64,000 nucleotides of DNA, taken from Escherichia coli (GTDB lineage Bacteria > Pseudomonadota > Gammaproteobacteria > Enterobacterales > Enterobacteriaceae). The notes under the pieces are model-generated. The model was not told where the DNA came from, searched no databases, and was given only the letters and a program-made list of their open reading frames with translations. The translations under genes and the position numbers were made by a program. The stretch is from the NCBI RefSeq assembly GCF_003018255.1, contig NZ_CP027440.1. One strand, written 5' to 3'. Position 1 is the stretch's first letter, and every line of letters starts with the position of its first letter. Positions 3,643 to 15,419 of the stretch are shown in pieces.

Positions 3643-3660
3643 TTCTTACGCATGTAGGAT
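3643..3660. promoter_or_regulatory. EvgA-box-like imperfect inverted repeat in emrK-evgA divergent promoter region
   Basis: TTCTTACG-CA-TGTAGGAT resembles the reported EvgA 18-bp motif TTCPyTACA-N2-TGTAPuGAA; about 175 bp upstream of emrK start. Confidence 0.5.
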
Positions 3661-3884
3661 TAGTGAGAAGACTTATAGTGCTAATGTGAAACTATAAATC
3701 ATCGGTACAATCCCTGATTTTATTGTTGACATTTCATTTATGCCGACTATTTATATGGTATACTTGTTGAATTATCTTAAAGGAAGCTCAAATTTTCTTA
3801 TTTTGATTGAGAAAATGAGATGATGCCTTATGTCTGTATTACTACAGGGAGAAGGGAAATGCTTCATTGCAAAGGGAATAATCT

Positions 3885-12133: not shown

Positions 12134-13384
12134 TCAGATGGCGTGGTTTTGCTTCATTGCAGCAATTTCATCGTCGCTATAACCCAGCTCCTGCAATACA
12201 GCAGCGGTATGCTCACCTAATAGCGGCGCAGCTTTAATATCCGGCGTAAAGGCAGAGAATTTCATTGGACAACCAACGGTCAGATATTTTCCACGCAACG
12301 GTTGTTCCACTTCGACAACACTACCACTTTGGCGCAAAGAGGGATCAAGTGAAATTTCTTTCATACTTAAAACCGGTGCACAAGGAATATCAAACTGAGT
12401 CAAATAGGCCACCGCTTCATGTTTATCAATAGTGACAGTGTATTTTTCGATTTCAGCAAAAATATCGAAAATATGTGGCTGTCGGGCATGGGCTGTACTG
12501 TATGCCGGATCGGTAATCCATTCTGGTTTGCCGATGGCTTTACAGGTGTTTTCCCAGTTTTGCTCCTGAATAGTGAAATAAATATAGGCGTTAGGATCGG
12601 TTTCCCAGCCTTTACATTTCAGGATCCAGCCAGGCTGACCGCCACCACCCGCATTACCACCGCGGGGAACTGCATCACCAAATGTGCCATTCGGATACTG
12701 CGGGTATTCTTCCAGATACCCCAACTTATCGAGACGCTGCTGGTCGCGTAATTTCACGCGGCAAAGGTTCAACACGGCATCCTGCATTGACATGGTGACT
12801 CGTTGCCCACGCCCCGTTTTTTCGCGATGCAGCAAAGCAGCAAGTAAACCGATCAGCAAATGCATTCCGGTGTTGCTGTCACCCAACGCTGCAGCGCTTA
12901 CCAGCGGCGGACCGTCCCAAAAACCTGTAGTAGATGCCGCGCCACCCGCTGCCTGAGCAACGTTTTCATAGGCTTTTACATTCACATAAGGCGAACACTC
13001 ATCAAACCCTTTGATCGAACCAAAAATCAGACGTGGATTGATTTCTTGAATATGCTCCCAGGTGAAGCCCATATGATCAATGGCCCCTGGATGAAAGTTC
13101 TCGACTAAGATATCAGCTTCGCGGATCAGCTTTTCCATTACCTCTTTGCCTTCCGCTGTTTTGGTATTTAATTCAATAGAACGTTTGTTACTGTTAAGCA
13201 TGGTGAAGTAAAGCGCATCGATATCAGGAATATCTCGCAGCTGGTGGCGCGTTACGTCACCAACGCCGGGACGTTCAATTTTAATGACGTCAGCGCCAAA
13301 CCAGGCCAGCATCTGAGTACAAGATGGGCCAGATTGCACACCAGTGAAATCGAGAACTTTAATTCCTTGAAGTGGAGTTGACAT
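12134..13384 (-). CDS. frc: Formyl-CoA:oxalate CoA-transferase
   Basis: 416-aa ORF, family III CoA-transferase; N-terminal [33 protein letters not shown]. Confidence 0.94.
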
Positions 13385-13635
13385 AGCAATACCTATTAGT
13401 TAATTAAATATATGTTAATTTAGCGTTTATTTAAGGCATAATGCTCTCTATAAATAATCCGCAAAATATCGTCGTAGCTGCACTCGATATTTTTAAATTC
13501 CTGTATCAAGTGCTGATAATCATTTCATCGCCACTTCCAATTCCTTTCTGCATGGTAAGTAGTGAGGACGAAAAGAAGAATATGATAAATATTGGTTCGC
13601 GGTAATCAGAGAGGGCCGCGACATTTGTGATGTTA

Positions 13636-13653
13636 TTCTTACAACTGTAAGAA
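13636..13653. promoter_or_regulatory. Perfect EvgA-consensus palindrome upstream of frc
   Basis: TTCTTACA-AC-TGTAAGAA read directly from sequence; exact match to TTCPyTACA-N2-TGTAPuGAA; about 250 bp upstream of frc start. Confidence 0.65.
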
Positions 13654-13896
13654 GCGCCGGTGATGTACAAGTAAGGGTATGATTACGCTTTTTAAAGCGT
13701 ACCATAAAACATAACATAATAAATGATTTATGATGACACGGGATTATTGCGGTTTACTTTGAAGAATATAAAATGCGAGTTTATAGCACCGCGAGCGCCA
13801 AATAATTTTATGGCCACAACCTGTCGTATTGTGGCCATAAAAAATTGTCGGCTGGAGGGAGTAAAATCCTTTACCTCAATATATTGCCTGTCAGCT

Positions 13897-14529
13897 TTAG
13901 TTCACAAACAGTGCTTCGCTATCGACGATGATTCCATCTTCCGCACCTTTAAGCGCCAGGTTTGCCTCGTAGTATTGCTTTTTATCAAGCAGTTTCTGCG
14001 CATCAGCAAGTGCATTACGAGTCTGTTTGAGCGGCATCAGATATTGGTTTTCCATTACACCAACACCGGCCAGGCGAAGCTCTTCCATTGCGCCCTTTTT
14101 ATCCCCTTTCGCCATTTTTTCGTTGGCAATTTTTATCGCGGCTTCTTTTTCGGGTGTCGCTACATAACTCTCAGAAATTCCGACAGATGCATTAATGACA
14201 ATATATTGGTCATCATTGAGATTGGTCTTTTTACCTGGCTTAGCGAACTTTGCCCATTCGGTACTGTCATCTGACAACAAAGCTGAAGCTTCATTGGTCA
14301 GTTCTTTTGCCTTTTCCGGATCGCCATGAAACAGAGCCAGGCGCGCTACCTGCACGTCACGCATCGCATATAAACCTTGTTCAGAGATACGCTCTGCTGC
14401 TGCCGTTTTCTGGGTTTGCTGAACTTGCTGAGTTTGCTGTTGTGCCGCTACCGGTGCATTATCAGCAGCCCATACAGTTGAAGATGCCAGAATTGCTGTG
14501 ACCATCGTAGCCATAATTAAACGTTTCAT
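13897..14529 (-). CDS. yfdX: Periplasmic YfdX-family protein
   Basis: 210-aa ORF with signal peptide ([21 protein letters not shown]), Q-rich linker; first gene of the yfdX-frc-oxc-yfdVE cluster. Confidence 0.9.
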
Positions 14530-14626
14530 ACTTACCTCATTCTTTAACAGTTTTAGAAAACGCCGCCATCATATTGGGTGAGCATGAAATGAGAAATCAG
14601 AGAGCAACGGTCATTTTGAAAGGGTT

Positions 14627-14682
14627 ATCTTACAGTTGTAGTTATTATCGCAAGAAGTATTTTAGTCTTACAATTGTAGGAA
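14627..14682. promoter_or_regulatory. Two tandem EvgA-box-like inverted repeats upstream of yfdX
   Basis: ATCTTACA-GT-TGTAGTTA (14627-14644) and GTCTTACA-AT-TGTAGGAA (14665-14682), 100-150 bp upstream of yfdX start. Confidence 0.55.
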
Positions 14683-14824
14683 TATGCTTCCTGTCACAGA
14701 GAACTATTCTTATATACCACAAAGAGATGTCATTTATTATATCGATGTAAATACTGATTAATTAAATGTAAATACAGCCATAACATCGTAGGTTCTCAGT
14801 GAACCATTTTCAGGATAACTTTCT

Positions 14825-15100
14825 ATGAAAGTAAACTTAATGATTTTTAGCTTATTTTTATTGGTCTCTATTATGGCATGCAATGTTTTTGCATTTTCCA
14901 TTTCTGGTGGTAGAAGTGAGACGAGCTATAAAGAGACAGAAAAAACGTCAGTGATGACGACAACTCATTCTACAAAACTTCAGCCATCACAGGCGATTTT
15001 GTTTAAGTTGAGAGAAGATGCGCCACCATTAAATCTCACAGAAGACATTACGCCCCCTTTTTCGACAAAGGCGAATTATCTTATTCATCCTGTGCGATAG
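14825..15100 (+). CDS. ypdI: Small secreted/lipoprotein-like protein
   Basis: 91-aa ORF with hydrophobic N-terminus (MKVNLMIFSLFLLVSIMAC); position matches ypdI. Confidence 0.75.
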   Translation: MKVNLMIFSLFLLVSIMACNVFAFSISGGRSETSYKETEKTSVMTTTHSTKLQPSQAILFKLREDAPPLNLTEDITPPFSTKANYLIHPVR

Positions 15101-15176
15101 CGTCTGTCACCTGGCAGGTGAACAATCATGCCTGATGCTGATGTGAACACCTGCCCAAATGAACCATCCTGACCCA

Positions 15177-15419
15177 CTAGCGCCTGCCATACCCCACCAT
15201 AAAGCGAATCATCAAGCCACAAGCCGGGGCAAGAAACATAAATATCCCCGTCACTAGTTCATTACCGCCAGTTAACCACATGGTGAAGTAGTAAATGAGT
15301 GCAGCGAGGATCACCATGCCGAAGAAAGAAGAGACCGCCGAGACCACGTTCAGTACCTGACCGATGTATCCGCTTACGCAGACAATACACAGGGCGAGAA
15401 ACATCCATAAATAAATCAT
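15177..15419 (-). CDS. yfdY: Small inner-membrane protein (two predicted TM helices)
   Basis: 80-aa hydrophobic ORF convergent with ypdI. Confidence 0.75.
   Translation of the reverse strand: MIYLWMFLALCIVCVSGYIGQVLNVVSAVSSFFGMVILAALIYYFTMWLTGGNELVTGIFMFLAPACGLMIRFMVGYGRR

Follow-up and report, generated by a model that had tools for sequence, protein, structure and literature searches.

EvgA boxes are reportedly 18-bp inverted repeats with a consensus of approximately TTCYTACA-N2-TGTARGAA. EvgA control of frc (yfdW) is already published. The legend to Fig. 2 of PMC3720670, citing Masuda & Church 2003, attributes the induction of yfdX and yfdWUVE to inverted repeats bound by EvgA, and a second-hand statement in the review PMC8147483 places frc among the promoter regions strongly bound by EvgA. 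Constitutive evgS mutations place frc and oxc in the group of most strongly induced genes, and frc has the highest fold increase (PMC4283999). Overproduction of EvgA reportedly induces yfdX by orders of magnitude more than yfdWUVE, which is itself reported to be EvgA-induced (PMC4759549); under acid stress, the fold changes of yfdX and frc mRNA are similar (PMC10746267). Genomic SELEX with RpoD holoenzyme gave a peak in the frc<yfdX spacer, where H-NS is also marked (Shimada et al., PMC3946193; table entry ‘TTTATA-18-AATAAT frc < HNS < yfdX’). Our literature searches for EvgA ChIP or DAP data returned nothing relevant, and a text search for the EvgA consensus string gave no relevant match. Since EvgA repeats upstream of yfdX and yfdWUVE and EvgA binding at frc have both been published, an internal EvgA-dependent frc promoter is known biology, and the box described below belongs to the established EvgAS acid-resistance regulon. 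A closely related arrangement is that of internal promoters in acid-resistance clusters, which lie after a partial terminator and combine read-through with activator-dependent initiation.

The DNA analyzed here (the window) is a 64-kb segment of an Escherichia coli chromosome that carries emrK, evgA, evgS, yfdE, yfdV, oxc, frc, yfdX, and ypdI, named after their counterparts in matching E. coli genomes annotated by RefSeq. Both yfdX (13897–14529) and frc (formyl-CoA transferase; 12134–13384) are encoded on the minus strand. The gene coordinates bear out a spacer of 512 bp between them, the length given in a preliminary description of this locus. The spacer has the same length in K-12 MG1655 and a G+C content of 36%, and 5406 of 5426 complete E. 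coli genomes have it, with identities of 94–100%. RefSeq annotates no feature inside it, and an Rfam scan of 12800–15200 with E-values up to 1 matched no family. The yfdX gene itself is polymorphic in length by a single in-frame codon: it has 210 codons in the window and many strains, and 211 in K-12, O157 Xuzhou21, and NU14.

Three palindromes lie in the spacer at the positions that had been described, as a reading of the sequence confirmed: TTCTTACAACTGTAAGAA at 13636–13653, TACGCTTTTTAAAGCGTA at 13684–13701, and ATGGCCACAA-N9-TTGTGGCCAT at 13810–13838. A scan for perfect inverted repeats (arms of at least 7 bp, loop of at most 12 nt) found these three and no others. Chance occurrence was estimated from 2000 dinucleotide-preserving shuffles of the spacer, scored for perfect arms of at least 8 bp with a loop of at most 12 nt. 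At least one such palindrome occurred in 16.7% of the shuffles and at least three in 0.05%, and arms of 14 bp or more occurred in none of the 2000. The three palindromes together exceed chance; one palindrome with 8-bp arms alone does not.

We consider it about 75% probable that, within the yfdX-frc-oxc-yfdV-yfdE cluster that EvgA controls in E. coli, the spacer serves as a junction of a terminator and a promoter. The preliminary description had proposed a separately regulated internal promoter for frc and, at the other two palindromes, at least one unassigned protein-binding site or RNA structure. The first part of this interpretation is supported in what follows, and the assignment of the other two palindromes as protein-binding sites is not.

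The EvgA box upstream of frc

The inverted repeat TTCTTACA-AC-TGTAAGAA (13636–13653, with no strand assigned) is located 251 nt upstream of the frc ATG. It has zero mismatches to the EvgA pattern TTCYTACANNTGTARGAA and is the sole such match in the 64-kb window, so that the earlier identification of an exact consensus site is correct. Four sites in the window match TTCYTACANNTGTARGAA with three or fewer mismatches, as compared with 0.6 expected, and four were reached in no shuffle. The other three all lie where EvgA is known to act, upstream of yfdX and between emrK and evgA. They are the distal box of the yfdX promoter (14665–14682, no strand assigned, one mismatch), the proximal and degenerate box of the same promoter (14627–14644, three mismatches, with its right half TGTAAGAT intact), and an EvgA-like site in the emrK-evgA intergenic region (3643–3660, two mismatches). 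That matching sites were retrieved at known targets bears out the consensus given above. The two boxes of the yfdX promoter have centers 38 bp apart, and the proximal one retains only the right half-site.

Compared with the EvgA boxes of ydeP, safA-ydeO, yfdX, and emrK/evgA, the frc site has the same 18-bp inverted repeat. The sites at these other targets in K-12 or the window (AGCCTACACCTGTAAGAA at ydeP, TGCCTACAGCTGTAAGAA at safA, TTCCTACAATTGTAAGAC at yfdX, and TTCTTACGCATGTAGGAT at emrK-evgA) carry one or two mismatches to the pattern. Unlike them, the frc site is a perfect match, and it is unusually far (251 nt) from the start codon.

Conservation of the spacer was followed in an alignment of 13 strains chosen across the identity range, in which 60 of the 512 columns vary (12%). 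Variability amounts to 18–28% over the 150 nt upstream of the EvgA box and to 0–10% over the 250 nt downstream of it, as is expected if a functional promoter and leader begin at the box. None of the 18 columns of the box varies, as compared with 18–28% upstream, indicating purifying selection on the box relative to its surroundings; the 19 columns after it are invariant as well. When the box is taken with the next 11 bases as a 30-mer, 5403 genomes, essentially all of those with the spacer, match it exactly over at least 28 nt, and a 38-mer with the box likewise matches in 5403 genomes. We conclude that 13636–13653 is most likely the EvgA activator site of the frc (yfdW) promoter. A promoter with an EvgA site that drives frc-oxc-yfdVE separately, as had been suggested, is supported by this conservation together with the legend of PMC3720670, the review PMC8147483, and the SELEX data of PMC3946193. 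The assignment has little significance beyond annotation. What it usefully adds is the confirmation, at the scale of a population of about 5400 E. coli genomes, that the frc EvgA site is invariant.

The yfdX 3′ hairpin and the middle palindrome

The palindrome nearest to yfdX is longer than had been described. The inverted-repeat scan gave perfect arms of 14 bp rather than 10 bp, TTTTATGGCCACAA-N9-TTGTGGCCATAAAA, at 13806–13842. On the mRNA (minus) strand the element reads UUUUAUGGCCACAA-UACGACAGG-UUGUGGCCAUAAAA, then UUAUUUGGCG, with its start 54 nt beyond the stop codon of yfdX. The RNA forms 15 consecutive pairs, the closing pair being U·G or U-A, with a folding energy of −22 kcal/mol for the window and −19.9 kcal/mol for K-12 (z −6.3 and −5.7, respectively); no shuffle was as stable. 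A terminator-type stem-loop is therefore present on the transcribed strand after the stop codon. The preliminary description had reported no U-tract on either strand. This is true of the plus strand, which is without a T run, but on the minus strand the stem is followed by TTATTT (13805–13800). This U-rich tail, UUAUUU in RNA, lies directly 3′ of the extended stem and is invariant in the 13 strains. For the 10-bp core the earlier statement is accurate; beyond the core, the stem continues through the flanking U4/A4, and UUAUUU comes after that.

Pairing of the hairpin has been maintained in evolution. The K-12 form, with A62 and U84 (alignment columns), is found exactly in ~4650 genomes, and the window form, with G62 and C84, in 256–260 genomes. 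A further ~450 genomes have the single change G77A, which converts the loop-closing U·G to U-A. These three common haplotypes are all fully paired, and other single changes occur in no more than ~1.4% of genomes. The compensatory double change between G:C and A:U counts as one evolutionary event, which the window shares with ST648 and KN12-1. A reading of the hairpin as a REP/BIME repeat was rejected, as the element occurs at a median of one place per genome.

A canonical terminator has a U tract of 7–9 nt after a G+C-rich stem base. The yfdX hairpin is like the Rho-independent terminators of E. coli in having a stable stem-loop on the coding strand near a stop codon, a U-rich sequence following it, and compensatory pairing. 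It is unlike the canonical ones in its stem base, whose bottom six pairs are all A-U (5′ UUUUAU with 3′ AUAAAA), and in its tail, which is only UUAUUU (five U in six) and then GGCG. The element passes a simple scan (at least 5 T in 8 bases) as terminator-like, a criterion that is weak alone because the scan gave 2 sites as compared with 1.6 expected in shuffles. Judged by its sequence, 13806–13842 is most likely an intrinsic terminator of moderate strength or a 3′ stabilizer of yfdX. The short, interrupted U tail and the A-U stem base make it non-canonical, and as a terminator it may be weak, with an efficiency that is probably partial; some read-through is therefore likely. Partial read-through would reconcile an internal promoter with the usage ‘yfdXWUVE operon’.

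Published expression data bear on this assignment in several ways. The much greater induction of yfdX than of yfdWUVE by EvgA (PMC4759549) fits termination between yfdX and frc. That acid stress changes yfdX and frc mRNA by similar factors (PMC10746267) suggests that read-through may be substantial. Unless acid or EvgS activation is present, the yfdX-frc operon shows hardly any expression. In the Term-seq supplement of PMC7815308, where the operon was barely expressed, there is no 3′ end at the hairpin and only one internal to yfdX, at 2494302. Assigning the hairpin as the yfdX 3′ end is testable, and would explain how yfdX can be expressed at a different level from the oxalate genes.

The middle palindrome, TACGCTTT-TT-AAAGCGTA (13684–13701, no strand assigned), occupies the spacer's most variable segment. 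Five of its 18 columns vary among the 13 strains, and it is broken in five of the strains by four different patterns of substitution, none of them compensated: T202C in O157, A208G in one Danish isolate, T212G in JE86, and A207T with C210T in B2-type strains. A 38-mer centered on it matches in only 3807 of the ~5406 genomes (~30% differ), as compared with 5403 genomes for the 38-mer with the EvgA box. The middle palindrome thus does not have operator-type symmetry that is both conserved and beyond chance.

The candidate frc promoter and its leader

Located 22 nt downstream of the frc EvgA box is a 10-mer, CTCTCTGATT (13604–13613, minus strand), that is invariant in the 13 strains. A second copy (14595–14604, minus strand) is located 22 nt downstream of the proximal EvgA box of yfdX. 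The 10-mer occurs only these two times in the 64-kb window, and its identical offset from the two boxes points to a shared promoter module. In having CTCTCTGATT at +23, the sequence downstream of the frc box resembles the module of the proximal yfdX box. The ydeP/safA module differs from these, having TTGAAG or CTGAAG at +14, that is, 13 nt after the box. The two copies of the 10-mer suggest that the module shared by frc and yfdX, unlike that of ydeP and safA, may have been duplicated.

The last six bases of CTCTCTGATT, CTGATT (13609–13604, minus strand), form a candidate −35 hexamer. A candidate −10 hexamer, TATCAT (13587–13582, minus strand), was read by eye 16 bp after it; this hexamer reads TATTAT in phylogroup B2-type strains. 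With these hexamers, transcription of frc would start near 13575, the center of the EvgA box would lie near −70, and the leader would be ~190 nt in length. A scan of the minus strand for the sigma-70 consensus found no site scoring at least 9/12 downstream of the EvgA box. A poor match to the sigma-70 consensus is not unusual for an activator-dependent promoter. The sole minus-strand site that scored, TTTATA-18-AATAAT (13772–13743), is promoter-like; it lies on the yfdX side of the EvgA box, upstream of it, and falls within the variable portion of the spacer. It is the same site to which the RpoD SELEX peak was assigned (PMC3946193), and it would be a separate, EvgA-independent start, if used at all. 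Supplements of acid-stress ribosome-profiling studies contained no entry bearing on the frc start site. On the plus strand, antisense sigma-70-like sites scoring 9/12 occur at 13691–13720, overlapping the middle palindrome, and at 13492–13520, inside the frc leader.

Other readings of the leader and spacer were rejected. A structured, riboswitch-like leader RNA is not indicated, as the folding of the predicted 200-nt leader does not surpass that of shuffles (z −1.3). Small open reading frames of 54–65 amino acids in the spacer are unsupported, and span the EvgA box and the variable region. A 15-codon leader reading frame, ATGCAG...TGA, is without a Shine-Dalgarno sequence, and two of its three variable sites are non-synonymous and one is synonymous. 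The otherwise conserved leader has one hypervariable patch, at 13435–13461 (alignment columns 436–462), 50–75 nt upstream of the ATG. In this patch 9 of 27 columns are variable and a single nucleotide is inserted or deleted, with at least three haplotypes: GAGAGCATTATGCC, GAAGATATTACGCC, and GA-GGCGTTATG(C/T)C.

It is a long shot that either CTCTCTGATT is a second, undescribed cis-element or the 15-pair hairpin is a tunable attenuator. If the former held, the 10-mer would be a site for a co-regulator or a specialized contact for RNA polymerase, particular to the pair of frc and yfdX promoters. If the latter held, the hairpin would set the ratio of yfdX to frc-oxc in response to a signal such as oxalate, and the long, conserved frc leader (~190 nt) would be regulatory too.

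Organization of the yfdX-frc junction

The elements can be combined in the following model. Transcripts from the yfdX promoter would meet the 15-pair hairpin and UUAUUU at 54–97 nt after the yfdX stop codon, where most would end or gain stability and some would read through. About 150 nt beyond the hairpin, a phosphorylated EvgA dimer would bind the perfect 18-bp inverted repeat at 13636–13653 and activate the weak sigma-70 promoter downstream of it (candidate CTGATT-16-TATCAT, start near 13575). From this promoter of its own, with frc as the first gene downstream, frc-oxc-yfdVE would be transcribed inducibly by acid with a leader of ~190 nt. The middle palindrome would be part of an unconstrained stretch between hairpin and box, functionless as a palindrome. 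As in other acid-resistance clusters with internal promoters, yfdX and frc-oxc-yfdVE would each have their own site for the same regulator, enabling co-induction along with different levels of expression. No mechanistic difference from such clusters was found. The presence of the elements, their statistics, and their conservation are observed, while the promoter hexamers, start site, and termination activity are predictions from these.

An alternative is that there is one transcript only, yfdXWUVE, with the yfdX promoter alone driving all five genes. In that case the spacer's EvgA box would be redundant, or else architectural, for example looping to the yfdX boxes or countering H-NS, rather than the activator site of a separate promoter, and the hairpin would be merely a structure for mRNA stabilization or processing. 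Several papers do name a single ‘yfdXWUVE operon’, H-NS is marked in the spacer (PMC3946193), and the similar acid induction of yfdX and frc (PMC10746267) and the lack of a strong sigma-70 consensus downstream of the box also speak for it. These points have to be set against the EvgA repeats named in the legend of PMC3720670 as inducing ‘yfdX and yfdWUVE’ and the EvgA binding at the frc promoter stated in PMC8147483, as well as the in vitro binding of RNA polymerase holoenzyme to the spacer (PMC3946193). Further points against it are that the 10-mer of the yfdX promoter recurs after the frc box with an identical 22-nt offset, and that the ~250 nt downstream of the box are strongly conserved. 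The induction of yfdX far above the downstream genes upon EvgA overproduction (PMC4759549) likewise argues against a single transcript, which we consider unlikely.

The two remaining palindromes could instead be sites for proteins. For the hairpin, the 14-bp arms would be the DNA site of a dimeric or tetrameric protein, or a cruciform, rather than an RNA terminator, and would control, from a distance, either read-through or the frc promoter. In favor of this are the perfect symmetry on both strands, the non-canonical U tail, and the fact that the symmetric compensatory substitution would equally preserve a DNA palindrome to which a dimer binds. However, 14-bp arms with a 9-bp spacer far exceed typical operator half-sites, the position after a stop codon and the U-rich tail on the coding strand form the pattern of a terminator, and G77A improves pairing in RNA at the loop-closing position. 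The element also matches no Rfam family and is not of the REP type. A DNA site at the hairpin is therefore very unlikely, the arms, the UUAUUU tail, and the position after the stop codon fitting a terminator instead; of the two possibilities raised earlier for this element, RNA structure was the right one. For the middle palindrome, the proposal would be that some regulator truly binds it and that the site has since degenerated in certain lineages. This palindrome is perfect in ~70% of genomes, K-12 included, and extends to an imperfect hairpin with arms of 12/13 nt (−10.7 kcal/mol, z −4.5), and three palindromes in one spacer are improbable by chance. Once the other two are explained, however, the chance of a single palindrome with 8-bp arms in this AT-rich spacer is ~0.17, and the middle palindrome lies in the most variable segment, with its four independent and uncompensated substitutions in 13 strains. 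We know of no regulator whose consensus it matches. A genuine site is hence improbable, and the palindrome, being unconserved and compatible with chance (16.7% of shuffles), is most likely fortuitous and probably non-functional, although its perfect form in ~70% of genomes leaves a small probability of a role confined to certain lineages. The middle palindrome drops off the list of candidate regulatory sites.

The spacer was also compared outside E. coli. Among the matches listed in a search of a genome collection with Frc, the close relatives were E. coli, Moellerella wisconsensis, and Providencia stuartii. Upstream of frc, M. wisconsensis and P. stuartii lack any EvgA-like box, and their sequence there shows no detectable similarity to that of the E. 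coli spacer, which is thus lineage-specific among the matches listed. EvgAS control restricted to the Escherichia lineage would fit this result.

Two further observations concern the surroundings of the spacer. In E. coli Z503 (NZ_CP090305.1), an IS1 element has removed part of the spacer, beginning at its middle, together with frc, oxc, yfdV, yfdE, evgS, evgA, emrK, and a portion of emrY. The 277 bp next to yfdX are all that is left of the spacer, making Z503 a natural strain without EvgAS and the oxalate genes. In K-12, a 9-codon open reading frame, evgL (b4781), is annotated directly upstream of evgA and overlaps the evgA start; the counterpart of this region in the window lies near 3700–3790.
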